Shown: positions 1 to 12,136, numbered from the stretch's first letter. The stretch: 63,864 nucleotides of DNA from Eubacteriales bacterium (GCA_045604985.1 JAZUPD010000017.1:1-63864), one strand, 5' to 3'. The notes: a model not told the origin generated them from the letters alone. A program made the numbers and translations.

Positions 1-1777
1 TATCCTTGTTTTGCGATGTGCTTATGATAACTTCATCGGTTCGATTGGTCTGATTCTGAAGCCACAATTCATTAATTTGATTTACTTCTGCATATGGAAT
101 AAAATCTCCAAATGGCGGATCGGTAAAAACAAAATCTATGCTGCCATTGTAATCCAACATTCTTGTGCTTGAAGAATTGTTTACTACAACTTTTCCAGAA
201 CATTTTTTCAACAACGCATATGCCTCTATGAACGGCTTGGCTTTTCGTTTCAACCCAAGTAATATATTCTTCTCAACCGGCAATTTGCTTATATACAATA
301 CACCGCTTTGAGCACTTGTTAATACAAAATCCTTGCTGTTTTTCTTAGCGACAACTCTAGTCATAAGGGTACAATGAGCAGAGTTATAACTTAAAAGCAA
401 GAGCTTAAGGGCGTTGGCTATTTTTGTAGGATATTCTTCTGCAAGTTTCCAAAGACTCAATATTACACCATAATTCCTTGTTGTATAGAATTGGTGAAGG
501 TATTCTATTCCAAAATGATATCCTGCACGATGAAGTTCTCCCCAAACAATCTTTTTAGCTTCAGATTCAATATCAATAGATTCCTCTATCTTTTTGAATT
601 GAAGTCTATCATCCTCGTTGGCACAGCGATCCCAATTTTTGCTGTTTGTTGTTCCATATATCCAAGCAGGGAGTCTTTTTTTGCGTTGAGAATGTTTCTT
701 GGTCACACGATCAAAATAAGTTTCAGTAACGAACGGCATATCCGACACCGTATGCTTAACTCCACAATGTGGGCAGCATATGCTATCTTTGAATTCAACA
801 GGATTTTTAGTTGTTCCATATTGGAAATATGAGACCTCGCCCTGGCATGAAGGACATTTTAATATCTCAGTCCAAATTATATATCGAATATATCCCATCT
901 TTCCTTCGGGATCACGAACGGAATAATAGTTTCCGACAATTTCTTCTGCTTTGGTAACAAAAGAGTTTACTGCAGATTCATACTCTTTAGCAGTAAGACC
1001 ATTTAACAAGGTATGCGTGGCAAAGGATGCATAGGTTCCAATCTCATATAAGACAGCATTCCTTTTTCCCCATTTAGGATTTGCTTTCAATTGCTTTGCA
1101 ATTTCTTTCATCTCTTCTGTAGGGTGCTCACACAACAAAGCGGCAATTCCTGTACTTCCGCTTCCCGAAAATGCATCTAGCACAGTATCTCCGGGGTTAG
1201 TTGCACATGCTATATACACAGCAATTGCTTCAGGTGATATTCTTGTGGGATAAGGGAAAGTGTTATTAAACACACCAGAGCGCGAAGAGGGCAAAGGAAT
1301 GGAGAAAAGCTCTTCCAAAGACTTGGTATCCGCATTTGTTTGAATAGTTCTGCTATCAACCTTTTTTTCTTCATACGATTCTTTTAATCTATCAATCGCC
1401 ATTTCGGGACTCATAGTGTGGTACATCAGATAGACCACTTTCATCGTCTTGGCGGGGGCTTGTTTGTAGATTTCTCGGCTACTCTCGCCGGTGTAGAAGT
1501 TCCAATAACGGTAAATGTAGCCCGCCCAATAAAGTGTTTCTTTATCGTATACCTCACCATCTTTTGTGAGTTGATCTGCAAGCTCATCTTCCATACGGGA
1601 AAGGATATACGCCTTGCCTGCCCACTGCACATGATGGAACTCTTTATCCATATCTGCCGATACCTGCGAGGTCATGAACGCCTTTATAAAGGCTTCGCTA
1701 CTATATCCGTGTTCTGCCGCAAGTTCAAACAGTTGACCTTGTGTATCGCACAATGTAATTTGTAGTGATTTACACAT
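1..1777 (-). CDS. DNA amino-methyltransferase (N6-adenine/N4-cytosine type) with a DUF3791-like N-terminal domain. The start is present and the C-terminus runs off the window
   Basis: Absent from the ORF track because it is open at the window edge. My translation from the ATG at 1777 begins MCKSLQITLCDTQGQLFELAAEHGYSSEAF and continues to ...YWAGYIYRYW...YLMYHTMSPEMAIDRL (DUF3791-like). AdoMet motif I VLDAFSGSGSTG lies at about 1148-1183. A Cys4 ribbon CPSC...CPHC lies at about 770-860. Catalytic motif IV FTDPPFG lies at about 110-125. The ATG sits 1 nt after the upstream stop codon. Confidence 0.8.
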   Translation of the reverse strand, partial: MCKSLQITLCDTQGQLFELAAEHGYSSEAFIKAFMTSQVSADMDKEFHHVQWAGKAYILSRMEDELADQLTKDGEVYDKETLYWAGYIYRYWNFYTGESSREIYKQAPAKTMKVVYLMYHTMSPEMAIDRLKESYEEKKVDSRTIQTNADTKSLEELFSIPLPSSRSGVFNNTFPYPTRISPEAIAVYIACATNPGDTVLDAFSGSGSTGIAALLCEHPTEEMKEIAKQLKANPKWGKRNAVLYEIGTYASFATHTLLNGLTAKEYESAVNSFVTKAEEIVGNYYSVRDPEGKMGYIRYIIWTEILKCPSCQGEVSYFQYGTTKNPVEFKDSICCPHCGVKHTVSDMPFVTETYFDRVTKKHSQRKKRLPAWIYGTTNSKNWDRCANEDDRLQFKKIEESIDIESEAKKIVWGELHRAGYHFGIEYLHQFYTTRNYGVILSLWKLAEEYPTKIANALKLLLLSYNSAHCTLMTRVVAKKNSKDFVLTSAQSGVLYISKLPVEKNILLGLKRKAKPFIEAYALLKKCSGKVVVNNSSSTRMLDYNGSIDFVFTDPPFGDFIPYAEVNQINELWLQNQTNRTDEVIISTSQNKD

Positions 1778-1778
1778 A

Positions 1779-2624
1779 TCATTCACCCTTCAATATTTCG
1801 TCGAAGAATCTGCCTTCGCGACGGTATTTAACCTCGATTTCCTCTGCCAGCGCAATTCCTTCTTTTCTTCTTTCTGCACTCATGTCCTTGAGCAACGAAA
1901 GCTCCAACTGGGAGAGAGGTTCTTCCTTCAGAATTTTAATCTGCCTACACGCCTTTTCACTGATTGCAACGTATTGCTTGCCAAGGTCAAGGGCGGAGAG
2001 GCAGTTGATAAGAGCTACATCGGTAAGAGTTCTGTTAAAGAAACGAGAAAGCTCGGTATACATACGGTCGTTGGCAATGTAGCCGATGATCACATCGTAG
2101 CCGTCAGCCATATGTGCGTACTTCTCGTAGATAGGAGTACCCTTAGCACTTTCCATTTCCTTGCGATAGTAGGCAATAAGCATAGCCCAATCCATGCCGA
2201 TTTCAACGGTCAATACCTTCAGCCCTGTCATATCAAGCTCAACCGTATAGAACTTAGGTTTGTCCTCGTTGCAAACAAGAGTTAACGGTTGAAGCGTATT
2301 TGTTCCCATGTAGAAGCCGCTACCGAAGTCACACTCGTCACGGCTGATAGGTGCAATATCTCCAACGATACCTTTCTTCGATCCGTGATATAGTACGAGC
2401 TTATTATCAGTATCTCCGTATGCTTTTGTGTCTATAATGAGCTGTGCAACATCAATGGCATGCTCTCTACAAAAGTTGTATAATTGTGTCTGCGCCATGC
2501 GGTTTGGCAAAGTTTTACCATTCTCCCAACGGTTGATAGAAAGCGGCGTCGTGCCAAGTGTCGACGCAAATTGTTCTTGATTCATATTGGCTGCAAAGCG
2601 GATAGCTTTAATCAAATCTTTCAT
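1779..2624 (-). CDS. XRE-family HTH domain fused to a DUF3990 domain protein
   Basis: ORF 1779..2651, start refined to MKDLIK (ATG 2624) behind the RBS AGGTGG. The N-terminus NQEQFASTLGTTPLSINRWENGKTLP is a classic XRE HTH. The C-terminus has the DUF3990 hallmarks LYHGS, DFGSGFY and YDVIIGYIANDRM. Confidence 0.8.
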   Translation of the reverse strand: MKDLIKAIRFAANMNQEQFASTLGTTPLSINRWENGKTLPNRMAQTQLYNFCREHAIDVAQLIIDTKAYGDTDNKLVLYHGSKKGIVGDIAPISRDECDFGSGFYMGTNTLQPLTLVCNEDKPKFYTVELDMTGLKVLTVEIGMDWAMLIAYYRKEMESAKGTPIYEKYAHMADGYDVIIGYIANDRMYTELSRFFNRTLTDVALINCLSALDLGKQYVAISEKACRQIKILKEEPLSQLELSLLKDMSAERRKEGIALAEEIEVKYRREGRFFDEILKGE

Positions 2625-2940
2625 GATATACCACCTATCATTTGTAATCACTTATTATTATATACTATGATAGGCGGTTTGTCAAGAGGTGTTGCCGGAT
2701 TTTACGACTCTTCGGCTAATTTTAGGAATTGCCATAAATCTGCCGAAGTTTTTCTCTCGTCAAAAAAGGTGGCAATAGCGTTGGTGTATGTCTGCGACCG
2801 ATATTAATGTCGGTCGCAAAATGTGCCTCGACCGAAAATATGCATAATTTAAGATTTCGAGCATCCAAAATATGCATGGTGGCGAGACGCCGTAATCTTT
2901 GTCTTCTGCGATATAATTTTTGTGTGGCGATGGCGGTAAT

Positions 2941-2972
2941 AATGTCGGAAAGAATGTCGGGGTATTTGTCGG
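2941..2972. repeat. Three tandem 8-mers (AATGTCGG, AATGTCGG, TTTGTCGG) at 12-bp spacing, with a fourth AATGTCGG at 2806-2813 inside the palindrome 2793-2818
   Basis: Read directly from the sequence. The repeats lie in 0.5 kb of non-coding DNA upstream of the HTH-DUF3990 gene. Nearby are AAAATATGCAT x2 (about 2835 and 2868) and AATCGTGA x2 (about 3012 and 3034). Confidence 0.6.
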
Positions 2973-3104
2973 TGCAGCACGTATTTTCATTTTAGTCAAG
3001 TACGATTTGGTAAATCGTGATTAGGTATTTTTGAATCGTGAGTCCGTGGCTCGCTCGTCCTTAATCTTTGATTACAGCGTATCACTTTTTGATCCGTGAA
3101 GGAC

Positions 3105-3133
3105 TTGAATATTTCTCTGTTTTATGCTATAAT
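3105..3133 (+). promoter_or_regulatory. Sigma-A type promoter (TTGAAT-17-TATAAT) pointing toward the tRNA fragment
   Basis: TTGAAT at 3105-3110, a 17-nt spacer, and TATAAT at 3128-3133 preceded by TGC. Confidence 0.5.
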
Positions 3134-3270
3134 GGCAATAGCAAAAAATCCACCTCGGGCTGGAGCTTGCGGCTCGTGCGAGGTGGGGCGAGTGATATGC
3201 AATTTAAGGTCTGACCACAATCTTGACCATTTACAGGTCTGGACTACGTGGAATTTATGGACTTTGCGGC

Positions 3271-3314
3271 ACGAAAAAGCACGGGTTTCGGACGAAAAAG
3301 CACGAAAAAGCACG
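3271..3314 (+). repeat. Three direct copies of ACGAAAAAGCACG (3271-3283, 3292-3304, 3302-3314)
   Basis: Seen directly, immediately upstream of the tRNA-Pro half. They may be recombinase arm-type sites. Confidence 0.55.
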
Positions 3315-3340
3315 CAAAATGAGGCAAAAAACCGATGCTT

Positions 3341-3390
3341 TTGCGTTTGGGACGTCGATGCCGCAGGTTCGAATCCTGTCACTCCGACCA
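3341..3390 (+). other. tRNA-Pro(UGG) 3' half remnant (anticodon loop, T-arm, acceptor 3' strand, ACCA). Not a complete tRNA and a probable att core
   Basis: The segment reads TTTGGGA (anticodon-loop-like, anticodon TGG) ... GCAGG TTCGAAT CCTGT CACTCCG ACCA. C1:G72 with discriminator A is typical of bacterial tRNA-Pro. No D-arm and no matching 5' acceptor strand (CGGAGTG) lie upstream. Confidence 0.6.
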
Positions 3391-3410
3391 AAATTTGTGT
3401 TTTTCGCACT

Positions 3411-3450
3411 AAAAAATCAGTCCTAATCGCAAGCTTAGGACTGATTTTTT
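3411..3450. terminator. Bidirectional intrinsic terminator
   Basis: A perfect 16-bp stem, AAAAAATCAGTCCTAA / TTAGGACTGATTTTTT, around an 8-nt loop, with A/T runs on both sides. It lies between the tRNA fragment (+) and the end of the redox operon (-). Confidence 0.8.
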
Positions 3451-3624
3451 GTTTATTTTGCTTGTTTTCGCATTTCGCAAAAGACCACAGTTTTTTATCA
3501 AAACGCTTTATTTCGGCACAAGACACCGATTTTGAGCATTTTTGCAGTCGTTTTTGGAGAGTTATTTCATAATCCCTTTTCTTTGCTTACTGTGACTCAA
3601 ATTTTAAACAATGATTGCTGTGTT

Positions 3625-3993
3625 TTATTTCAGCTCCACCGTTTCAACCTTCACCTTGAACATAAGAAAATGCTCTATACCCGTATGATCAAATATCTGC
3701 TTTACTACGGGACATTCGTCAAGCATTCTCTGTTTCAAGCCTGCGTCTCCGCATTCCTCTGAAACGCCCGTGATCCTGATCCATTCCATCGAGCCTGACT
3801 TCTGTGCGACGATCTGGATCTTTTCGTTTGCTCTCATCTGCTTGTGGACTTGATTCATGTCATTGGTGGAAAGATAAAGATCTTCGCCCACCTCCATTAC
3901 TGCTCCAAAAGGTCTGCCCGCAGGAGAATCACCATTCATTGTGATAACGATAAACGATCCGCACTCTTTCAAAAATTCGTATGCCTTACTCAT
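3625..3993 (-). CDS. Pyridoxamine 5'-phosphate oxidase family protein
   Basis: ORF 3625..4092, start refined to MSKAYEFLKE (ATG 3993) behind the RBS GGAGG. The longer ORF would overlap the upstream gene. The sequence shows a PNPOx-like split-barrel pattern. Confidence 0.7.
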   Translation of the reverse strand: MSKAYEFLKECGSFIVITMNGDSPAGRPFGAVMEVGEDLYLSTNDMNQVHKQMRANEKIQIVAQKSGSMEWIRITGVSEECGDAGLKQRMLDECPVVKQIFDHTGIEHFLMFKVKVETVELK

Positions 3994-4021
3994 CGTTATT
4001 TCCTCCGTGTTGTTTTTGATG

Positions 4022-4837
4022 TCAATCAATTCGGTAAGATGCGATATATACAGTACCGTCATCGTGGGGAAGCCCCGGGTTCTCCTGTGCAAAGCTCAGC
4101 TTCATACCAAGCTCCCGTGCGGCAAGTTCGAAATGGCACAGTGCGATCCCCATATCTATCCTTTGCATATCCAGTGCCTCATGATTACCAAAGCCTCTAC
4201 TGCGTTTCAGATAAAAGTGAACGGCGTTGCTCTCCACAACGATGCGCCACGGTTGCTTGTTGACCGCAGACGGAGCCCACCTCACCATTTCCAGTGGATA
4301 GGCAAGCTCACCCGCCTTTTCCTCTGTCAGAGGAGTATCAAACGTGCTGTCAAAGAACAGTTTCTCAAAGGGCAGTCTCTCGTCGGCCTTGATCGCTTTG
4401 CGCATCATGCTCTCGCACAAAGACGTCTTGTTTGCCGGATAGCCCAGAGGACTTGCGCAAGGCATCATTTCGTCCTCTGCAAGCTCCATTGCGGCTTCAT
4501 AAGCAGGGCGATTCATCGTGCCGCCGAGCCACACTGTGCCGATGCCAAGCGACTGCGCATACAGCACCAGCATTTCAAATGAATATCCGAATGCCTCGAA
4601 TGCCGCCGATGTGCGCTTTATCTTACCGCCTACATACAGATCCGTACCGACCACAACCGGACATTTAAGTCCGTACTCGCCTGCATCCATAAGCTTAAAC
4701 CCGACGTTTATACCATACGGATTTGGGGTGTTCTCCATAAATTCGCACAACTTTGCCTTATCATCTGCGGTAATCTCCCTGCCGTCATAAGCTCTCACAC
4801 TGCGCCTGTTTTTTACAAGGTCTTTGATATTTTTCAT
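4022..4837 (-). CDS. Nitroreductase family protein
   Basis: The translation contains VKNRRSVRAY...VNKQPWR. The start is at MKNIKD (ATG 4837). An alternative ATG at 4852 overlaps the ohrR stop. Confidence 0.8.
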   Translation of the reverse strand: MKNIKDLVKNRRSVRAYDGREITADDKAKLCEFMENTPNPYGINVGFKLMDAGEYGLKCPVVVGTDLYVGGKIKRTSAAFEAFGYSFEMLVLYAQSLGIGTVWLGGTMNRPAYEAAMELAEDEMMPCASPLGYPANKTSLCESMMRKAIKADERLPFEKLFFDSTFDTPLTEEKAGELAYPLEMVRWAPSAVNKQPWRIVVESNAVHFYLKRSRGFGNHEALDMQRIDMGIALCHFELAARELGMKLSFAQENPGLPHDDGTVYIASYRID

Positions 4838-4851
4838 AATAATCTCCCTCA

Positions 4852-5289
4852 TTACTCCCCCGCACCCAGTACCTTATACAGCAATCCGTAAAGCTGAAGC
4901 ATTTCTTCTCTGTTAAGTCCCCCGCATCCGGCAACCTTAGCAGGAATCTCTACTGCTCTTTCTTTCAATTTTTCGCCACTATCTGTCAGAAATACGCTGA
5001 CCGAGCGTTCATCCGTTGTGCTTCTTTTGCGTGAGACGTATCCCTTGGATTCAAGACTCTTTAAGACGGGTGTCATCGTTCCCGAATCGAGAAACAGTGC
5101 CTCACCCAGAGCCTTTACGGTGATCTCCTTCTGCTCCCACATAACCATCATCGTGATGTACTGCGTATAGGTCAGGTCAAGCTCGTCAAGGTGCGGACGG
5201 TAGCTTTTGACCACCTTTCGCGCGGCGGCATAAAGAGGAAAGCATAGTTGATTTTCAAGCTTTAGTACGTCGTATTTCGAATTACTCAT
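4852..5289 (-). CDS. ohrR: MarR-family organic hydroperoxide resistance regulator OhrR
   Basis: The region LKLENQLCFPLY...LTYTQY...LDSGTMTPVLKSLESKGYVSRKRSTTDERSV closely parallels B. subtilis OhrR, including the sensing Cys. An ATGA overlap links it to the flavodoxin gene. Confidence 0.8.
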   Translation of the reverse strand: MSNSKYDVLKLENQLCFPLYAAARKVVKSYRPHLDELDLTYTQYITMMVMWEQKEITVKALGEALFLDSGTMTPVLKSLESKGYVSRKRSTTDERSVSVFLTDSGEKLKERAVEIPAKVAGCGGLNREEMLQLYGLLYKVLGAGE

Positions 5290-5690
5290 AGATACCTCTT
5301 TGCAAATTCTGCGGCATTCGCCAGATCCGCTTCATTCGGTCTGCCATTGTGAATTTTTCCGAACTGTCCTCGGCAGTGGAATTCTTCGTCCGCTACGGCA
5401 ACGCCAACTGCCTTTGCCACCTTTGATACAGGCTTCTTCATCGACTTCATCATAGCCGACGTGCCGAAGCAAACGATCTTGCCGATATTGTCTTTGTTAT
5501 TGACGATAAAATCCTTCACCGCCTGATCCACATCAAATGCGTAGTAGGAGCAACCGAGGAACAGAATATCCGCATTTTCTTCAAGCGCAACCGAAACGTC
5601 CCTTGCATCTACGGAGACCGCCTCCGCAATGGCTTCCGCAAGCTTTTTGATGTTACCCGAACGGGTGTAGTATCTAACTGCTATCTTCAT
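5286..5690 (-). CDS. Flavodoxin family protein
   Basis: The N-terminus MKIAVRYYTRSGNIKKLAEAI is flavodoxin-like. The ORF is 134 aa. Confidence 0.7.
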   Translation of the reverse strand: MKIAVRYYTRSGNIKKLAEAIAEAVSVDARDVSVALEENADILFLGCSYYAFDVDQAVKDFIVNNKDNIGKIVCFGTSAMMKSMKKPVSKVAKAVGVAVADEEFHCRGQFGKIHNGRPNEADLANAAEFAKRYL

Positions 5691-5702
5691 ATAACGCCTC
5701 CG

Positions 5703-5966
5703 TCAGTTATTGTTCTTTGTTTCTTCATATGCTGCTCTAACCGCCCTTGCCAATTGGTCGGTACAAGAGGTAGGACGTCTGCCACAGGTATTGCCAAGCA
5801 ATTTTTCTTCAATTTCTTCAACCGTAGCACCCTCAAGCAATTTTGCTATTGCCTTCAGATTTCCGTTGCATCCACCGTAAAATTCAATATTTGTAATAAT
5901 ATTTCCGTTAATATCGAAGGATATGATCTGCGAGCAGGTGTTCTCGGTTTTATATTCGTACCGCAT
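5703..5966 (-). CDS. TSCPD-domain protein (TIGR03905-like, 4-Cys)
   Basis: The translation shows CSQIISF...FYGGCNGNLKAI...CGRRPTSCTDQLA. The start was refined to MRYEYK (ATG 5966) behind the RBS AAGGAG. A TGATG overlap links it to the gpx stop. Confidence 0.7.
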   Translation of the reverse strand: MRYEYKTENTCSQIISFDINGNIITNIEFYGGCNGNLKAIAKLLEGATVEEIEEKLLGNTCGRRPTSCTDQLARAVRAAYEETKNNN

Positions 5967-6505
5967 CACAGACACTCCTTGATAGCATCCTTCAGATTTT
6001 TCATATCTGTCGGCTCAAAGCGGGCGACGATCTCGCCGTTTCTGTCAATAAGAAACTTGGTGAAATTCCATTTGATCTTGCCGTTATTCTTATAATCCTT
6101 ATCGGTCTTTTTTACAACGCCCGAAAGCATCAGCGCCATAGGCGATTTACCGAAACCGTCGAACTTAGTATTTTCGGTCAGCCATTGATAGAGAGGAATG
6201 GCATTCTCGCCGTTTACCTCAACCTTTGCAAACTGCGGAAAGGTGATGCCAAATCGACCCGTACAGAAGGTGTGGATCTCATCATCGCTTCCAGGTGCTT
6301 GCTCGCCAAACTGATTGCAGGGAAAGTCGAGGATTTCAAATCCCTGCGCTGAAAATTCCTCGTACAGATCTTGCAGTTCATCATACTGCGGAGTAAAACC
6401 ACATCCCGTTGCCGTGTTTACAACAAGTAGCACCTTGCCTTTGTATTCCTCCAGAGATACCTCGCTGCCGTCCATTTTCTTTACTTTGAAATCGTATGCG
6501 TTCAT
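5966..6505 (-). CDS. Glutathione peroxidase
   Basis: LVVNTATGCGFTPQY, FPCNQFGEQAPG and WNFTKFL are canonical Gpx motifs. Confidence 0.9.
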   Translation of the reverse strand: MNAYDFKVKKMDGSEVSLEEYKGKVLLVVNTATGCGFTPQYDELQDLYEEFSAQGFEILDFPCNQFGEQAPGSDDEIHTFCTGRFGITFPQFAKVEVNGENAIPLYQWLTENTKFDGFGKSPMALMLSGVVKKTDKDYKNNGKIKWNFTKFLIDRNGEIVARFEPTDMKNLKDAIKECL

Positions 6506-6526
6506 AGCGCACCTCCAAGAAATAAT

Positions 6527-6545
6527 AACTCAATTCAATTGAGTT
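6527..6545. promoter_or_regulatory. Palindromic operator AACTCAATT-C-AATTGAGTT, a candidate OhrR box
   Basis: A perfect 9+9 inverted repeat lies just downstream of the -10 of the gpx operon promoter. The AATT-N-AATT core resembles known OhrR operators. Confidence 0.6.
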
Positions 6546-6551
6546 CAATCT

Positions 6552-6580
6552 ATTATAGCATATTTAATTTTCATTGTCAA
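6552..6580 (-). promoter_or_regulatory. Consensus sigma-A promoter of the gpx-to-PNPOx operon
   Basis: On the minus strand: TTGACA (6580-6575), a 17-nt spacer, and TATAAT (6557-6552). Confidence 0.75.
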
Positions 6581-6660
6581 TAATATTTTACTGTATTATT
6601 GCAAGTTGATGCAAAAAATCTTTCCGAGGCTTTTCTTTGCTTACTGCGACTCAAATTTTG

Positions 6661-6689
6661 AGGGCTGACGGTTATTTTCCGTCAGCCCT
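6661..6689. terminator. Hairpin AGGGCTGACGG...CCGTCAGCCCT (REP-like terminator hairpin)
   Basis: An 11-bp stem lies downstream of the DUF5131 gene. Similar AGGGCTGAC hairpins occur at 7528-7557, 11674-11703 and 22159-22180. Confidence 0.55.
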
Positions 6690-6723
6690 TTGTGTATGTT
6701 CTCCCCGACAAATTGGAATTTGT

Positions 6724-7443
6724 TTAATAGTTTAAGTTTATATTCGCTTTACGGGCTTGCCTCATTTGTTCATTTCTGGGAATAGTATATCTTTTGCCAT
6801 CCTTTACAAAATTTGCCCCTGTTTGTTTGAAATAAAATGGAATTTGATAAATCCTACATTGTTCTCTTGTATTCAATATCCATTCGTAATTACATTCCCT
6901 TGCGTTGTTACCGGATTCTCCCCCGCAAGTCACACCTTTTACTTGATTGCTCTGTAAATATTTTTGTATGTTTATATGCTCCAGCATAGGTTCGTGTATG
7001 ATTTCTTTGTGTTTAATGGGAAGCTCCAGCAAAATAGGCAATCTTTCATCTGCGGTAGCTTGGTTTTCACAAGTGCAAATTATCGTCACGTTATCATATC
7101 CGTCGCACCAATCTTTTGGAATACAATCATGAAATCTTTCGATTCTTTTCGTAATTATGGTAAAATGTAAATCTTGTCTGATTCTTACGATTTCCCATAT
7201 TTGATTTCGCCATTGATCTGCTTCCTCAATAAAGAAATCCGACGTCATGCATATATATACATTTTTTCCCGATTCTATGAAATATCTGCCATCTCTGCGT
7301 TTTTTGATTCCTAAATCAAAATCTTTTGTTTTTTCAATTATTTCGCTGTTTTTATCGTATAGGCTGTCGCGACGAAACATATAGCAATTCAAACAACCTG
7401 CTGACTTTTTATGACATCCATGCCACGGATTCCAAACCGCCAT
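6724..7443 (-). CDS. DUF5131 (phage Gp37/Gp68) family protein
   Basis: The N-terminus MAVWNPWHGCHKKSAGCLNCYM is typical of the family. The start was refined to ATG 7443 behind the RBS AGGAG. Confidence 0.75.
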   Translation of the reverse strand: MAVWNPWHGCHKKSAGCLNCYMFRRDSLYDKNSEIIEKTKDFDLGIKKRRDGRYFIESGKNVYICMTSDFFIEEADQWRNQIWEIVRIRQDLHFTIITKRIERFHDCIPKDWCDGYDNVTIICTCENQATADERLPILLELPIKHKEIIHEPMLEHINIQKYLQSNQVKGVTCGGESGNNARECNYEWILNTREQCRIYQIPFYFKQTGANFVKDGKRYTIPRNEQMRQARKANINLNY

Positions 7444-7562
7444 TCTATATCTCCTCGTCAAATTCTTATTTATCGTTGGATTTATTATATCATGATTTTA
7501 TAAATTTTTCAATCGTTCAAAGCTATAAGGGCTGACAGTTTTTCTCCTGCCAGCCCTCATAA

Positions 7563-7955
7563 CTATTTCTTATTCAACATTTTCACCTTTGGCACGTAGT
7601 TTTCCTTTATACCGATTACTGTATATCCGGCTCTTTCTATGTGCGACTTAATTGTTGTATCATCAACTTCCTCTGCATAAGAAACCAAAAGCTCGCCCTT
7701 TTTCAGATCGACCTTGCCTGCAATACCGGTAAGATCGTTAACGACTTCTTCCACTCTGTTTTTACAACGGTTGCAATGCATCCCATCTACCAAAAACACC
7801 TTTTGATAACGAATACCTGCGAGCTTCTTTTTCTTTGGCTTATAACTGCTGCCACCGCCGCAACAACTTCCCTCACCCTTGAAGTGCTTTACTGATGAAA
7901 TAACGGCTATGACCACGATAATGGCGATTACAGCGATAATAATATAATTTTCCAT
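7563..7955 (-). CDS. Membrane-anchored Cys-rich plus heavy-metal-associated (HMA) domain protein
   Basis: An N-terminal TM helix and GSCCGGG resemble FeoB-associated Cys-rich peptides. The C-terminal ferredoxin-like HMA fold carries a GMHCNRC metal site. Confidence 0.7.
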   Translation of the reverse strand: MENYIIIAVIAIIVVIAVISSVKHFKGEGSCCGGGSSYKPKKKKLAGIRYQKVFLVDGMHCNRCKNRVEEVVNDLTGIAGKVDLKKGELLVSYAEEVDDTTIKSHIERAGYTVIGIKENYVPKVKMLNKK

Positions 7956-7964
7956 TTGAGCATC

Positions 7965-8339
7965 TCATTTCTTCCTTCTGTTGTATAATTCATTGATTTT
8001 ATCGGGCGACATATCCGCAAGAATACCGCATATGGCGATCTCGGTAGTTGCGTTGTCACCGCAAAGCTCATTCATTTTGTTTTGGAGTAATCCAAAGCAT
8101 ACCTCGTATTTGTTTGCCAAGGCACGTCCCTTTTCTGTAAAATGGGCGAGTCCGAAGATCTCCTGAGTGAGAACTCCTGTTTCGGCAAGAGATTTCAGCA
8201 TATTATGTACGCTCGGCTTGCTGTAATCGAGGGCCGTAGCAATCTCAATGTTTTTTACTCCGCATCCTCCGTGCGATAAACGTAGCATACAAATCATATA
8301 TCTGATCTGCGACGATGTGAATTTTATATAGTTATTCAA
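7965..8339 (-). CDS. DtxR/MntR-family-like HTH regulator (N-terminal DNA-binding domain type)
   Basis: The region IEIATALDYSKPSVHNMLKSLAETGVL is a winged HTH of DtxR type. The likely start is TTG 8339, 6 nt after GGAGG. The track ORF runs to 8396. Confidence 0.6.
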   Translation of the reverse strand: MNNYIKFTSSQIRYMICMLRLSHGGCGVKNIEIATALDYSKPSVHNMLKSLAETGVLTQEIFGLAHFTEKGRALANKYEVCFGLLQNKMNELCGDNATTEIAICGILADMSPDKINELYNRRKK

Positions 8340-8395
8340 GACTAACCTCCGCTTTTCAGAAAAGGGATACGACGCTCGGTACGCATCCCTTAACA

Positions 8396-8584
8396 TTATT
8401 GTTTATAGTTGTCTTTGTCTGCCTCGTTGTGACCACATCCACCGTTGCAATTTCCTCCGCATTGCTTTGCGTAAGGACAACCGACACATTTTTCACCGCG
8501 CTTCTTGGCGCGAACGATATAGAATACCGCTGCACCAACGATAAGCACGATTGCGGCGATTGCTATATAATCAACGATCCCCAT
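8396..8584 (-). CDS. FeoB-associated Cys-rich membrane protein
   Basis: MGIVDYIAIAAIVLIVGAAVFYIV is followed by CVGCPYAKQCGGNCNGGCGH. The gene lies immediately downstream of feoB. Confidence 0.8.
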   Translation of the reverse strand: MGIVDYIAIAAIVLIVGAAVFYIVRAKKRGEKCVGCPYAKQCGGNCNGGCGHNEADKDNYKQ

Positions 8585-8586
8585 AA

Positions 8587-10602
8587 TTATGCACAAAGAG
8601 CGTATTCAGCCTTAAGCTGCTTGTTCTTTCTGGTAATCATGAAGGTGAAGATTGCGGCAATGGCAAGCGTGATTACCCAGCCGAGCGTGGGGATCCAAGC
8701 TGCGCCGAAGCTTCCGCCCGTGAACAGCGTACCGAAGAAGAATACGAGGAATCCGATTACGTATCCAACTGCAAACTGAAGTCCGATACCTGCCCAGAGC
8801 CACTTCTTGCTCTTGATCTCGGAGTTCATTGCGCCGAGAGCTGCGAAGCAAGGAGGTGTAAAGAGGTTGAACATAAGGAATGCAAGACCTGCAACAACCG
8901 AGATACCACCCATGTTGGATGCGCCGATTTCGCCAATAGCCTCGAGATCATCGTTGATCAGATGCTCAAACATAAATACGGTTGCAAGAGTAGAAACAAC
9001 GCACTCTTTTGCTATAAAGCCCGTAACAGCCGCCGCTGCAAGCTGCCAAAGTGCTACACCAACGATAGGAGCAATTACGTAACCAATCGGTGTTGCGATG
9101 GTAGCAAGGATGGAGGCCGAAGGATCTTCAACTGCCCTGAAGTTCCAGCCGTAGGTCTGCATCATGTAAACGACGAAGTTACATACGAGAATGACCGTTC
9201 CTGCCTTAACTATGTAAGCCCAACCTCTCTGACACATAGACTTGAGTGCCTGAACGAAGGAAGGTGCTTTGTATTCGGGAAGCTCGATGATGAAGAAGGA
9301 CTTTCTTGCCTTGTGACCGGTAAGCGCATTGATAAGAAGTGCGCAAAGAAGAATGAGAACGATACCTACGAAGTACATCGTAACGCCAACCCATTCAGAA
9401 CCCTCGAAGAATGCGCCTGCGAAAAGTGCGATAACGGGAAGCTTTGCTCCGCAAGGCATAAAGGGAGTCAGCATGGCAGTTGCTCTGCGCTCACGCTCGT
9501 TACGGATGGTGCGGCAAGCCATAACACCGGGGATCGCACATCCTGTGCCGATAATGAAGGGGATAACGGATTTGCCCGAAAGACCGACTGTCTTGAAGAT
9601 AGGGTCGAGAACAACGGTAGCACGTGCCATATAACCGCAATCTTCAAGGAGTGCGATAAGGAAGTACATAACCATTACGAGAGGCAAGAAGCCGACAACG
9701 GCTGCCACGCCTTCAATGATACCTTCAAGGATGATAGCTTGAACGATGTCGTTAGCACCGCTGAGCCAGCCGGCTACAACGTCTTTGAACCAACCGATGC
9801 AGTCACCAAGACCCCAAAGGTGAGTTTCGCCAACGTCAAGACCTTCTGCAAGCCATACGCCGGGGCCTGCCTGAGAGATCCAGAAAACAGCCCACATAAT
9901 TAGAGCGAAGATCGGAATGCCGAGCCACTTGTTTGTAAGAACAGCATCAATCTTGTCGCCGATGTTTCTTTCCTTCGTAAGCACCTTACGGGTTTCAACC
10001 TCTTTCACGATTCCGTTTACAAACTCGAAGCGCTTGCGGTCAGCGGCTTCAACAACGGTTTTGTCGGAAAGGTCGACGTCACCCTGATGATAGGGTGCTT
10101 TCTGCGTTTGACCTGCCAAGGACGCAGCAGCTTCAATAAGTGCTTTGAGTCCTTTTGCCGAGGTAGAAACGGTAGTGATTACGGGACAGCCGAGCTTTGC
10201 GCTCAAAGCGTCCACGTCAATTTTCGTTTCCTTTTTTTCGTTGATATCGCTCTTATTTAGAGCAACGACAACGGGAATACCAAGCTCTAAAAGCTGCGTA
10301 GTGAAGAAAAGGCTACGGCTGAGGTTGGTAGCATCCACGATGTTGATGATAACGTCGGGATTTTCCTTTTTCACGTAGGAGCTTGTAATGCTTTCCTCGC
10401 TCGTGAAGGGGGACATGGAGTATGCACCGGGAAGGTCAACAGCAATAAGCTGTGCGCTGCCTGCATACGCCTTTTTAATGGGGTGTTCTTTCTTGTCAAC
10501 GGTAACACCAGCCCAGTTTCCGACCTTCTCACTGCGTCCGGTCAGAACATTATACATGGTGGTCTTACCTGAGTTGGGATTGCCCGCCAAAGCAATTCTC
10601 AT
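8587..10602 (-). CDS. feoB: Ferrous iron transport protein B
   Basis: The ORF is 671 aa with an N-terminal G-domain (GNPNSGKTT, DLPG, NKSD) and a polytopic gate domain. Confidence 0.95.
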   Translation of the reverse strand: MRIALAGNPNSGKTTMYNVLTGRSEKVGNWAGVTVDKKEHPIKKAYAGSAQLIAVDLPGAYSMSPFTSEESITSSYVKKENPDVIINIVDATNLSRSLFFTTQLLELGIPVVVALNKSDINEKKETKIDVDALSAKLGCPVITTVSTSAKGLKALIEAAASLAGQTQKAPYHQGDVDLSDKTVVEAADRKRFEFVNGIVKEVETRKVLTKERNIGDKIDAVLTNKWLGIPIFALIMWAVFWISQAGPGVWLAEGLDVGETHLWGLGDCIGWFKDVVAGWLSGANDIVQAIILEGIIEGVAAVVGFLPLVMVMYFLIALLEDCGYMARATVVLDPIFKTVGLSGKSVIPFIIGTGCAIPGVMACRTIRNERERRATAMLTPFMPCGAKLPVIALFAGAFFEGSEWVGVTMYFVGIVLILLCALLINALTGHKARKSFFIIELPEYKAPSFVQALKSMCQRGWAYIVKAGTVILVCNFVVYMMQTYGWNFRAVEDPSASILATIATPIGYVIAPIVGVALWQLAAAAVTGFIAKECVVSTLATVFMFEHLINDDLEAIGEIGASNMGGISVVAGLAFLMFNLFTPPCFAALGAMNSEIKSKKWLWAGIGLQFAVGYVIGFLVFFFGTLFTGGSFGAAWIPTLGWVITLAIAAIFTFMITRKNKQLKAEYALCA

Positions 10603-10657
10603 GATGGATTTCCTCCTTATTTTAATCCTTTCGGATATAAATTACTGTCTAAATGGT

Positions 10658-10675
10658 GGTTAGCAATTGCTAACC
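10658..10675. promoter_or_regulatory. DtxR-type palindromic box GGTTAGCAATTGCTAACC (feoA-feoB spacer)
   Basis: An 18-bp perfect palindrome related to the DtxR/IdeR consensus TTAGGTTAGCCTAACCTAA. It sits in a 24-nt block (ATGGTGGTTAGCAATTGCTAACCG) identical to the one at 10987-11010. Confidence 0.7.
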
Positions 10676-10736
10676 GTATGCCTAAAAAATAATCAGCTTG
10701 CTGTTTTTGAGGCATACAATTTCATGGCATACAAAA

Positions 10737-10949
10737 TTATATAATAATAGCTTCAGCAAGCTGATTATCAATATTATACCTTCCGTCCTTGATTGCGACG
10801 ACACAACCACCCTTGAGGTGGCGTACTACGGTGATTGCTTCACCGCTGTAGCATCCAAGGGAGAACAAGAACGCATTGAGTTCTTCATCATCGGTTTCAA
10901 TTTTGCTTATGATATATTCTTTTCCGTCCTGTGCTTCGCGAAGGTTCAT
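10737..10949 (-). CDS. feoA: FeoA family protein
   Basis: Within ORF 10737..11078. The start was refined to MNLREAQDGKEY (ATG 10949) behind the RBS AAAGGAG. The product is a 70-aa SH3-like FeoA. Confidence 0.85.
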   Translation of the reverse strand: MNLREAQDGKEYIISKIETDDEELNAFLFSLGCYSGEAITVVRHLKGGCVVAIKDGRYNIDNQLAEAIII

Positions 10950-10990
10950 CGTAAGCTCCTTTCTCCGATATCGGTCTGTGTTTTTATGGT

Positions 10991-11008
10991 GGTTAGCAAT
11001 TGCTAACC
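10991..11008. promoter_or_regulatory. DtxR-type box GGTTAGCAATTGCTAACC overlapping the feoA transcription start
   Basis: A perfect palindrome lies 8 nt downstream of the feoA -10. Confidence 0.75.
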
Positions 11009-11015
11009 GATGTAT

Positions 11016-11044
11016 ATTATACTCTTTTTTTCTATGTTTGTCAA
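11016..11044 (-). promoter_or_regulatory. Consensus sigma-A promoter of feoA
   Basis: On the minus strand: TTGACA (11044-11039), a 17-nt spacer, and TATAAT (11021-11016). Confidence 0.75.
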
Positions 11045-11099
11045 TGATTTTGCGCTTGTTTTTCTGTCGATTTTTCATTTTCGTATGCTTTTACAAAAT

Positions 11100-11117
11100 G
11101 GTTAGCAATCGCTAACC
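11100..11117. promoter_or_regulatory. DtxR-type box GGTTAGCAATCGCTAACC, with a degenerate copy TGTTAGTATTGGCTAATT at about 11144-11161
   Basis: A near-perfect palindrome lies in the divergent feoA/dtxR-family intergenic region. Confidence 0.65.
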
Positions 11118-11173
11118 GCCTTTCTCACGATCTTGCACAAAATTGTTAGTATTGGCTAATTTTTTTGATTTTA

Positions 11174-11202
11174 CTTGAAAAAAATTTCCTTCCATGTTAT
11201 AA
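11174..11202 (+). promoter_or_regulatory. Sigma-A promoter of the DtxR-family regulator gene
   Basis: TTGAAA (11174-11179), a 17-nt spacer, and TATAAT (11197-11202) with an upstream TG. Confidence 0.65.
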
Positions 11203-11235
11203 TATATTGAACTTGCAGAAAGGAAGGTGACATCT

Positions 11236-11610
11236 ATGGCACTTCACGAATCGGGACAGATGTATCTCGAAGCAATATACGTTTTATTACAGAAAAACGA
11301 TAAGATCCGAGCCATTGATGTTGGTGCTTATCTCGGCTACACAAAGCCTTCTGTAAGTCGTGCCGTCGGTCTTTTGAAAAAGAGCGAGCATATATCGGTA
11401 GATTCCGACGGATACATCACGATGACTCCCAAGGGAGAGGCGTTTGCCGAACAGCTATACGAACGCCATACCGTGCTGACAAAAATGCTGATGGCTCTCG
11501 GCGTTGACGAGGAAACCGCAACAGAGGATGCCTGCCGTATCGAACACGTGATTAGCGACAAATCCTTCACGGCAGTAAAAAAGCACTATTTGGATTACAA
11601 AAATCATTAA
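11236..11610 (+). CDS. DtxR/MntR-family metal-dependent transcriptional regulator
   Basis: The translation reads MALHESGQMYLEAIYVL...YTKPSVSRAVGLLKK...YERHTVLTKMLMALGVDEETA. ATG 11236 follows the RBS GGAAGG. Confidence 0.85.
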   Translation: MALHESGQMYLEAIYVLLQKNDKIRAIDVGAYLGYTKPSVSRAVGLLKKSEHISVDSDGYITMTPKGEAFAEQLYERHTVLTKMLMALGVDEETATEDACRIEHVISDKSFTAVKKHYLDYKNH

Positions 11611-11673
11611 ATATTTAGCGACAAGGATTTTTCGTCCTTGCCGCCGTATTCTTTGCTTACTTCGATAAAATTT

Positions 11674-11703
11674 AAGAGGGCTGACCGTTTGGTCAGCCCT
11701 CTT
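11674..11703 (+). terminator. Hairpin AAGAGGGCTGACC-GTTT-GGTCAGCCCTCTT, preceded by a second hairpin at 11618-11644
   Basis: A 13-bp perfect stem lies downstream of the regulator gene. Confidence 0.6.
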
Positions 11704-11854
11704 AAATCATTATGCAAGATTTGCAACAGAATAATTGCCTTATACTCTCTAATATGGCATAGCCATCGCAAGAAATTTCTCGCTGATAGGCGGCTTAAAA
11801 TGTGAGAACGGAAAAAAACCCTTATTATTGGATATTTTATAAATGTTGCTTTTA

Positions 11855-12136
11855 TTACTTCTTGATGGGCAGTAACATTTTCGTTTGTTGCTTATATTCC
11901 TCAATTGCCACGTGAATGCGAATTTCACCGCCGAATGTGGTAGGACGCTTATTCTGACATTCCACACCAAGTACGGGAGATGTAACACCGTCTTGCTCCA
12001 TTTTAGCGTAACCGCATCCAATCTGTTCAAGAAAGTCAACCTGCGCTTCTTCCATAAAACGAACTCAGTTCGAGTGGTGCGTTATGCCCATTTTATCTGT
12101 TTCATAATAGTTGATCTTTCTGATGTGATCATTCAT
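11855..12136 (-). pseudogene. Acyl-CoA thioesterase (4HBT/YbgC family) remnant with an in-frame TGA and a truncated C-terminus
   Basis: My translation from ATG 12136 reads MNDHIRKINYYETDKMGITHHSN*VRFMEEAQVDFLEQIGCGYAKMEQDGVTSPVLGVECQ.... This matches the YbgC-type N-terminal half but stops after about 90 codons. Confidence 0.7.

Follow-up and report, generated by a model that had tools for sequence, protein, structure and literature searches.

RES-Xre, DarT-DarG and ParS-ParT are type II toxin-antitoxin systems whose toxins have an ADP-ribosyltransferase fold, and type IIG/IIS restriction-modification (R-M) systems of the Eco57I and BspLU11III type consist of a bifunctional restriction endonuclease-methyltransferase and separate methyltransferases. 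Both kinds of system bear on a locus at the left end of a 63,864-nucleotide (nt) stretch of one DNA strand from a Eubacteriales bacterium, which is called the window below and taken at its full length. On its minus strand, a gene for an XRE helix-turn-helix (HTH) domain joined to a DUF3990 domain (gene A) is followed by a gene whose product begins with a partner domain (B) and continues into a DNA amino-methyltransferase (M1); the left edge of the window cuts this second gene. DUF3990 is listed in the ADP-ribosyltransferase (ART) clan of Pfam (PMC7955679), in line with an original prediction made from the window sequence, which had grouped it with ADP-ribosyl-type folds, and it takes the C-terminal variable toxin position of the Rhs5 and RhsA effectors of Serratia and Enterobacter (PMC4524185, PMC10763514). 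PDC-M42, whose profiles match A and B, is one of 145 PADLOC candidates for phage defence that were proposed by “guilt-by-embedding” (Payne et al., bioRxiv 10.1101/2024.01.29.577857), and in the literature on PF13151 (DUF3990), PF12668 (DUF3791) and PDC-M42 no functional account was found. The explanation that we favour, and hold to be reasonably probable, is a hybrid operon, in which an A-B cassette has been fused in frame onto an ordinary type IIG R-M operon.

Gene A ends with a TGA (1781-1779), and after the single base 1778 the second gene opens with the ATG 1777-1775. Translation of gene A probably begins at the ATG 2624, ahead of which an AGGTGG ribosome-binding site lies at 2631-2636; the GTG at 2651 falls within the promoter and the 5' leader and is therefore a poorer candidate. 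The product matches DUF3990 with 94.8 bits (E 5e-27, profile positions 2-151 of 152), above the Pfam gathering cut-off of 32.2, and HTH_3 with 29.4 bits (E 8e-7), above the cut-off of 23, and it contains the motifs LYHGS (2379-2393), DFGSGFY (2310-2330) and YDVIIGYIAND (2067-2099). The PADLOC profiles PDC-M42A (8.3e-14), PDC-M13A, PDC-M13B and M10A match as well. With B matching the M42B profile, the two genes show the arrangement by which PADLOC recognizes PDC-M42, that is, adjacent genes matching the M42A and M42B profiles, here with a 1-nt gap. In 37 homologues of 53-91% identity, Y79, H80, S82, G101, G103, F104, Y105, D177 and D186 are invariant. Four of these, H80 (in YHGS), Y105 (in GxGFY), D177 and D186, resemble the H-Y-acidic motif of the PARP type. 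In PDB profile and structural comparisons, the HTH of A resembles HigA2, the 434 repressor, P22 c2, C.BclI and C.EcoT38IS; a match to the Crov588 repeat protein in the PDB profile search was dismissed as spurious and low-complexity-like. The gene is under strong constraint, with a ratio of nonsynonymous to synonymous substitution rates (dN/dS) of 0.02-0.03 at saturated dS. An exact look-up of the gene in the contig index, with either start codon, gave no match.

What A probably does at the DNA can be read from its own promoter region. In 1-3700, only the sigma-70-type operon promoter matches the consensus at 12/12 positions; divergent loci have conserved it, and homology among contexts that are unrelated otherwise starts exactly at its -35 box. 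The putative operator that overlaps it is present in most of about 75 loci, and both of its arms change jointly with the recognition helix of the HTH, which defines three classes. About 55 loci combine the helix TT[PV]LSINRWENGK (TTPLSINRWENGK) with the arms CCTATCAT and ATGATAGG, five combine VTFATVNRWENGR with TATAACATT and AATGTTATA, and four combine VSP[VI]TV[SN]RWENGK with CTTAACA and TGTTAAG. An HTH_3 domain and a cognate palindromic operator, the marks of an XRE-family HTH repressor, are thus both present, and there is strong comparative evidence that A binds the palindrome at 2634-2674 and represses its own operon, which here would include the R-M genes. Adjacent co-transcribed genes with HTH-operator autoregulation, as found in type II toxin-antitoxin systems, are also what the comparison of sequences points to for A and B.

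The partner domain was identified through its free-standing relatives. Residues 9-132 of the fusion protein match PADLOC PDC-M42B (E 1.1e-9), and free-standing proteins of 138-140 amino acids (aa) share 93-99% identity with the segment, as do versions of about 240 aa with a helical tail. The original prediction had called it DUF3791-like; its identity as the partner held, and the family label did not, since Pfam DUF3791 (PF12668) reaches 15.1-15.4 bits (E about 0.02, residues 116-136 only) and the gathering cut-off is 25. DUF3791 is the sole recurrent family among 57 diverse members of the B family, matching 11 of them (best E 4.3e-5), and its model has 60 positions, compared with the 140 aa of B. 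At most, B is a distant relative of DUF3791, and the label overstates the case. An exhaustive search returned 822 representative clusters with a typical length of about 140 aa. AlphaFold2 predicts from the family alignment a nine-helix domain with a predicted local distance difference test score (pLDDT) of 97.1, for which no structural neighbour appeared in the PDB or in the viral structure library BFVD (best E above 2, TM at most 0.36); a PDB sequence search gave no match to B, and PHROG holds no family for DUF3990 or B. The dN/dS of B is 0.03-0.05 at saturated dS, and about 0.04 in the fused lineages too. The family comparison indicates that B is the cognate partner of DUF3990 proteins. C-terminal additions occur in the family in the form of the helical tail of about 100 aa, a GNAT domain or an HTH. 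P0365 (284 aa) has a GNAT acetyltransferase domain, and P0371 (380 aa) and P0383 (627 aa) have additions in which neither shows a Pfam match.

The pair is common in the gut. More than 4000 related proteins were found, and the gut Clostridia of humans and ruminants carry the cassette in at least 85 genomes at species level. A scan with one genome per species gave 80 loci, all from metagenome-assembled genomes of gut Clostridia (Oscillospiraceae, Lachnospiraceae, Acutalibacteraceae, Faecousia and others) of humans, sheep, goats, deer and horses; in 72 of them the sequence after A was available. B follows A directly in 72/72, at a spacing of about -8 to +18 nt. It measures 130-160 aa in 60 loci and about 240 aa in six, is cut by the contig end in five, and is fused to a methyltransferase in one (L023; relatives are denoted by such locus numbers), which makes 66/67 complete cases free-standing and 1/67 fused. 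The cargo behind A-B can be type I R-M genes (HsdM, HsdS, HsdR), a GmrSD-type (type IV) system, other type IIG enzymes, nothing recognizable, or the chromosomal uvrB, and A-B also occurs alone between housekeeping genes. Among the 95 proteins encoded at the three positions next downstream, N6_Mtase was counted 14 times, ResIII 12, HsdM_N 8 and GmrSD_N 5. A phage or plasmid origin was considered and set aside, since each collection held one remote match and there was no PHROG. In four A-B-headed islands, a gene for an 804-aa fusion of an ADP-ribosylglycohydrolase (PF03747, E 3e-32, residues 1-233) with a type I HsdM follows a 190-aa protein without assignment and a GmrSD_N protein (L012:6700-9111; also L013, L014 and L048).

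In Collinsella aerofaciens (NZ_OY725717.1, 697925-699272; L103:4995-6342) the roles are distributed differently. There, an HTH-less DUF3990 protein is followed by a 210-aa protein with a B-like domain and a C-terminal XRE HTH, and the pair lies alone between yihA and thrB; the B-like domain aligns with B in hhalign at 96.3% (E 1.9e-9). Either partner can thus bear the DNA-binding domain, the B-like protein in Collinsella and A in the window, which argues that the two proteins act together. It is plausible that A-B is a toxin-antitoxin-like pair, a reading that is strengthened by the operator covariation and by the swap of the HTH between the partners.

In the window, this pair is continuous with a methyltransferase. 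The second gene is open for 592 codons from its ATG to the window edge, and full-length relatives (P0001-P0003) have 746-748 aa, so that about 155 aa of the fusion lie beyond. The elements named in the original prediction for an amino-methyltransferase were all located: motif I VLDAFSGSGSTG at 1148-1183 (AFSGSG, residues 202-207), the Cys4 ribbon at 764-856 (CPSC at 845-856, CPHC at 764-775) and motif IV TDPPFG at 107-124 (DPPF, residues 553-556). Motifs I (FxGxG) and IV ((D/N/S)PP(Y/F)), as expected of an amino-methyltransferase (N6A/N4C), are accompanied by a Pfam N6_N4_Mtase match (E 5e-13). The best PADLOC profile is of the PglXI type (2.8e-78); MTase_II profiles match too, and the NCBIfam match to DUF1156 is weak. 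A BREX type 3 assignment of M1 was rejected, since no BrxC, PglZ, BrxA, BrxF or BrxHII was found among the genes of the 10 kb downstream in L023.

The joint between the two parts can be placed precisely. Free B ends at about residue 139, free M1 begins opposite L153 of the window protein, and the linker VDSRTIQTNADTK lies at the joint. In unfused operons, stop codons and a strong GGGAGGAG ribosome-binding site precede the ATG of the methyltransferase. In the window, the codon aligned with that ATG is a TTG (1319-1317) with no ribosome-binding site ahead of it, and internal initiation there was judged unlikely for want of a Shine-Dalgarno sequence. M1 should thus be made only as B::M1, and the arrangement of the genes indicates that B::M1 is translationally coupled to A. 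Five independent assemblies, drawn from ENA, Logan and NCBI, share the in-frame joint (the window, L001, L002, L003 and L023), and the fusion is therefore real, though a minority state. Only three clusters (P0001-P0003) of 1469 methyltransferase homologues have the B extension, more than 1000 homologues of 592-598 aa lack it, and the fused form amounts to about 40 member sequences, compared with thousands of free B genes. Since the linker is homologous in all fused alleles, the fusion appears to have arisen once. Two further proteins from other lineages, P0077 (656 aa; HTH_26 at residues 7-65) and P0107 (690 aa), carry an ordinary HTH controller (HTH_26 or HTH_3) fused to the methyltransferase N-terminus, and their sequences indicate independent read-through fusions at the same position. 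The N-terminus of M1 seems to tolerate whatever sits upstream, given that the P0077 lineage has fused the native controller to the same methyltransferase.

The relatives also reveal the operon to which M1 belongs. In the unfused loci L004-L011, a small HTH_26 gene (66-71 aa) is followed by M1 (592-598 aa), by the overlapping gene of M2, an Eco57I-like gamma-class methyltransferase of about 660 aa with NPPY, and by a 1073-aa N6_Mtase/Eco57I protein, after which an OLD/GajA-like ATPase and a UvrD-like helicase often stand. The closest relative of the window, L023 (94.6% nt identity over 1-2688), has the order A, B::M1, M2, a 1072-aa putative type IIG enzyme, a 196-aa protein without assignment and an OLD-like ATPase. 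Its 1072-aa protein matches PADLOC REase_MTase_IIG (4.5e-61), N6_Mtase (4e-14) and Eco57I (6e-12), and its conserved N-terminal nuclease motif, GFVDAVVGKTAIEYEKN, is suggestive only. L002 has, downstream of M2, a gene whose product shares 98% identity with the N-terminal part of this enzyme. Because L023 and L002 carry the restriction enzyme downstream, the captured operon appears to be a classical R-M operon, and by analogy the window's own genome would continue into M2 and the type IIG enzyme.

This changes how the original prediction is to be read. It had seen no nuclease in the part available to it, which is true of the window, while in the closest relatives one sits two genes further on. 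It had preferred a conflict or toxin-antitoxin-like module to a classical R-M system, and this preference fails, as M1 heads a widespread M1-M2-type IIG operon; a restriction enzyme just downstream, which it had named as the sign of an ordinary R-M module, is essentially what the nearest relatives L023 and L002 have, outside what the window lets one see. The two minus-strand genes 1 nt apart and the XRE-HTH-DUF3990 composition of the first, with its quoted motifs, were read correctly. The proposed tether of the DUF3990 partner to a methyltransferase exists, yet it is rare (one species in 67) and was produced as well as spread by recombination. The survey of gene neighbourhoods that had been suggested confirmed the fusion joint in the relatives; elsewhere, A-B precedes type I or type IV cargo, uvrB or no cargo.

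The window itself is a mosaic. From 3395 to 1371 it is 94-100% identical to L019, in which an unfused 244-aa B is followed by DUF4145 and a different type IIG enzyme, and from 1270 to 1 it is 96-100% identical to L023. With one side L019-like and the other L023-like, a crossover in the 3' end of B is indicated. L002 shares only 50-53% identity with the window in A and B, but 92% in M1, and has the same linker. These comparisons indicate that the fusion has moved onto different A-B alleles by recombination inside B. The conserved A-B cassette would thus serve as a homology arm for swapping restriction cargo, and it would be by this route that the fused state is handed on.

In the hybrid operon that we propose, the first unit would be a mobile two-gene A-B cassette of gut Clostridia with its own promoter and palindromic operator. 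It would be self-repressing, because the consensus promoter is its own and the palindromic operator is recognized by the HTH of A. B is most likely the cognate binding partner and inhibitor of DUF3990, and A plus B probably form the repressor. The DUF3990 of A may be enzymatically active and toxic, and B may be the labile protein that neutralizes it. The second unit would be a type IIG R-M operon of M1, M2 and the 1072-aa restriction endonuclease-methyltransferase, usually with its own small HTH controller gene. Their joining would have connected the 3' end of B to M1 through the 13-aa linker, with loss of the controller gene, the ribosome-binding site of M1 and its ATG; because these were removed, the R-M genes would be transcribed from the A-controlled promoter. 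A would take over the role of the C-protein, and it probably works like one in the window operon. As a C-protein proper, which is a small stand-alone HTH protein of about 70-100 aa dedicated to an R-M operon, A was rejected: it has 281 aa with a second domain, is unrelated to the native controller, and has non-R-M neighbours elsewhere. Most likely, the operon has been captured and the capture tolerated, and the fusion does not embody a new mechanism of its own.

Several points weigh against this explanation. The HTH lies on the presumed toxin in the window, as opposed to the antitoxin in classical type II systems. When A was compared with PDB sequences and profiles, the DUF3990 part found no convincing match, and the AlphaFold2 model of A, built from a shallow alignment, reaches a pLDDT of 55.7 and finds Foldseek matches for the HTH only. 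As the edge of the window cuts M1, any M2 and restriction enzyme of this genome would lie outside it. In L001 (L001:12222-14526), which carries the fusion, a shorter M2 (607 aa) is directly followed by a 147-aa UvrD_C remnant; this locus appears to have lost the type IIG enzyme and the OLD-like ATPase and to have kept its methyltransferases without a restriction enzyme. The fusion has survived the exchange of A-B alleles with B still under purifying selection, and it could be more than a neutral accident. The ADP-ribosylglycohydrolase::HsdM protein, finally, is a second physical link between ADP-ribose and methyltransferases, and it hints at a real connection.

Among the alternatives, the one that fares best is nonetheless unlikely. 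It takes A-B as a two-component transcription switch for defence islands, like regulators of the BrxR/CapW type, with DUF3990 as a catalytically silent sensor that binds NAD, ADP-ribose or a partner, and B as a co-regulator. The operator covariation shows DNA binding to be the selected function of A, the cassette always lies 5' of the cargo and holds the only strong promoter, and A was not found as a selfish module in the phage or plasmid collections. A silent sensor fits poorly, however, with candidate catalytic residues (H80, Y105, D177 and D186) that are invariant across 53-100% identity and with the service of DUF3990 as the toxin tip of Rhs proteins. The pair also occurs cargo-free, between housekeeping genes or beside uvrB, and an HTH that moves between partners is typical of toxin-antitoxin complexes.

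Somewhat less credence is given to the possibility that the methyltransferase is guarded. Here the inhibitor of DUF3990 would be held within the methyltransferase polypeptide, and an attack on the modification arm, its degradation or its loss would set the toxin free, for instance through phage anti-restriction proteins, when S-adenosylmethionine runs out or when the island disappears; the condition of the R-M system would in this way be tied to abortive infection or post-segregational killing. That the fusion persists with the same linker on two very different A-B alleles is in line with this, as are the dN/dS of about 0.04 for B in the fused lineages, the enrichment of A-B beside R-M genes and the independent ADP-ribose/methyltransferase link of the L012-type islands. 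Against it stands the rarity of the fusion, which occurs in one species of 67 and in about 40 sequences, compared with thousands of free B. B also tolerates unrelated C-terminal additions, read-through fusion with upstream sequence is recurrent, given that the P0077 methyltransferase is fused to its own HTH controller, and L001 retains the fusion though the restriction enzyme is gone. More doubtful again is the far-reaching version in which A-B would be a new ADP-ribosylation toxin-antitoxin or abortive-infection module monitoring DNA-modification enzymes, with inactivation or loss of the methyltransferase freeing the toxin from the fused inhibitor and with ADP-ribosylglycohydrolase::HsdM as the reversing arm, possibly acting on DNA.

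A plain R-M module, with A as an oversized C-protein and B as a dispensable leader peptide of the methyltransferase, is very improbable. The type IIG enzyme downstream in L023 and L002, the HTH fold of A, which is like that of C.BclI and C.EcoT38IS, and the replacement of the operon's own HTH gene by A do speak for it. Against it, A-B is a unit conserved separately from the operon, in 72/72 loci with varied neighbours and under purifying selection across both full lengths. No similarity was detectable between A and the native HTH controller of the operon, and a 150-aa enzyme-like domain makes up part of the 281 aa of A. An artefact (chimeric assembly, frameshift error or decaying pseudogene) is negligible as an explanation of the fusion, for although the sequences were assembled from metagenomes and the window combines two element types by recombination, the same in-frame joint recurs in five independent assemblies, the methyltransferase motifs are all intact and dN/dS lies well below 1 on either side of the joint.

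The hybrid operon would lie at one border of a larger element (Table 1), and the end of an integrated element that the original prediction had placed here is supported. Homology to the element copies L019 and L021 stops at 3395, just after a fragment of a tRNA-Pro(TGG) gene; L028 and L046 have an intact tRNA-Pro at the far end of the cargo, which in the present locus falls outside the window. The sequence thus supports the locus as the edge of an island inserted in tRNA-Pro, and the A-B cassette and the tRNA-Pro site would flank a slot in which restriction cargo is exchanged. ARAGORN called no tRNA in the window, and the remnant was seen by eye and by comparison with L028 and L046. No integrase was found inside the islands of L046 and L051, from A to the intact tRNA-Pro. 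Two related, inverted open reading frames (ORFs) of about 180-190 aa flank the island with A-B and type I R-M in L046 (L046:9024-9608 and L046:17809-18345), and also in L051. The spacer between promoter and island end is 86-100% identical among the closest element copies only, with 94-100% identity to L019, L021 and L022, and beyond 2686 it has no homology to L001, L012 or L023. Rfam at a permissive threshold gave no match in 1-12000, and no known RNA is therefore placed in the 660 bp. On the plus strand at 3105-3133 the spacer holds a promoter-like TTGAAT-17-TATAAT with an upstream TG.

Table 1. Positions of the features at the left end of the window
Feature	Position	Strand	Basis and details
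Gene A, 281-aa XRE-HTH::DUF3990	1779..2624	-	ORF, Pfam and PADLOC; HTH ~2430-2624, DUF3990 ~1935-2396
B domain, first ~138-139 codons of the fusion gene	1363..1777	-	PDC-M42B-like, distantly DUF3791-like, all-helical
Linker at the joint, 13 aa (VDSRTIQTNADTK)	1322..1360	-	Alignment of fused and unfused proteins
M1, Zn-ribbon amino-methyltransferase part of the fusion	2..1321	-	Pfam N6_N4_Mtase, PADLOC; cut by the window edge
Sigma-70-type operon promoter	2657..2685	-	TTGACA 2680-2685, 17 nt, TATAAT 2657-2662
Putative operator, inverted repeat	2634..2674	-	CCTATCAT 2667-2674 and ATGATAGG 2634-2641, 25 nt apart, bracketing the -10 box and transcript start
Non-coding spacer of ~660 bp, promoter to island end	2686..3348		No convincing ORF
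tRNA-Pro(TGG) 3' fragment, putative attachment-site remnant	3349..3390	+	Matches 3' part of the intact tRNA-Pro of L028 and L046
Terminator-like hairpin with T-run after the tRNA fragment, chromosomal flank	3410..3451	+	

Judged by the sizes and sequences of its ORFs only, the rest of the window (3600-63864) resembles an ordinary Clostridia chromosome, with a MarR/nitroreductase/flavodoxin-like cluster at 3.6-6.5 kb and, beyond it, ORFs of the size of FeoB, ABC-transporter, PheST, Lon and ScpAB genes. In L023, a gene for a 381-aa DUF4238 protein lies upstream of A on the opposite strand (L023:8656-9801), and downstream of the R-M genes (L023:18272-20636) the 196-aa protein is followed by a 589-aa ABC-ATPase/OLD-TOPRIM protein of the GajA/AriA/Old-like kind.

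In terms of its importance, the A-B cassette is a more valuable lead than the fusion, as it is abundant and autoregulated and combines an ART-clan domain with a partner of predicted fold that has no PDB or BFVD match. The locus and its relatives also yield an operator-repressor code with three specificity classes. If DUF3990 were an active ADP-ribosyltransferase curbed by B, the pair would stand for a new family of toxin-antitoxin or defence systems that is very abundant in the gut microbiome, and the B::methyltransferase fusion would be a ready-made tool for probing communication with R-M systems. Otherwise, the locus is a clear case of an R-M operon that lost its own controller and was captured by a foreign regulator.

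Compared with known systems, M1 shares the order of motif I, Zn ribbon and motif IV with PglXI of BREX type 3 and with the DUF1156 Zn-ribbon methyltransferases (COG1743-like); unlike in BREX type 3, its neighbours in L023 are M2, the type IIG enzyme and the OLD-like ATPase. The R-M part is closer to systems of the Eco57I and BspLU11III type, since in the relatives a 1072-aa N6_Mtase/Eco57I protein is preceded by two stand-alone amino-methyltransferases, whereas M1 of the window carries a foreign B domain, and the nuclease motif is no more than suggestive. C-protein R-M operons, such as those of C.BclI and C.EcoT38IS and the unfused L004-L011, are likewise headed by an HTH repressor with a palindromic operator; C.BclI and C.EcoT38IS share the HTH fold of A, and L004-L011 share the order of M1, M2 and the restriction enzyme. 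They differ in that A has 281 aa with DUF3990, is unrelated to the native HTH_26 protein of 66-71 aa, and occurs also with other cargo or none.

PDC-M42 and the related PDC-M13 and PDC-M10 agree with the window in the profile matches of A and B and in adjacent genes embedded among R-M and defence genes. PDC-M42 is a candidate only, known by its embedding, and in the window B forms the N-terminal part of a methyltransferase; A aligns with PDC-M42A from position 66 of the 280-position model onwards, so that the N-terminal HTH is not shared. RES-Xre, DarT-DarG and ParS-ParT differ from A-B in that DUF3990 is a different ART-clan family, the predicted fold of B is without a PDB relative, and the HTH of the window is on the presumed toxin. 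What A-B has in common with them is a coupled gene pair with an XRE HTH on the palindrome of its own promoter, a presumed effector from the ART clan, and an HTH that can be found on either partner.

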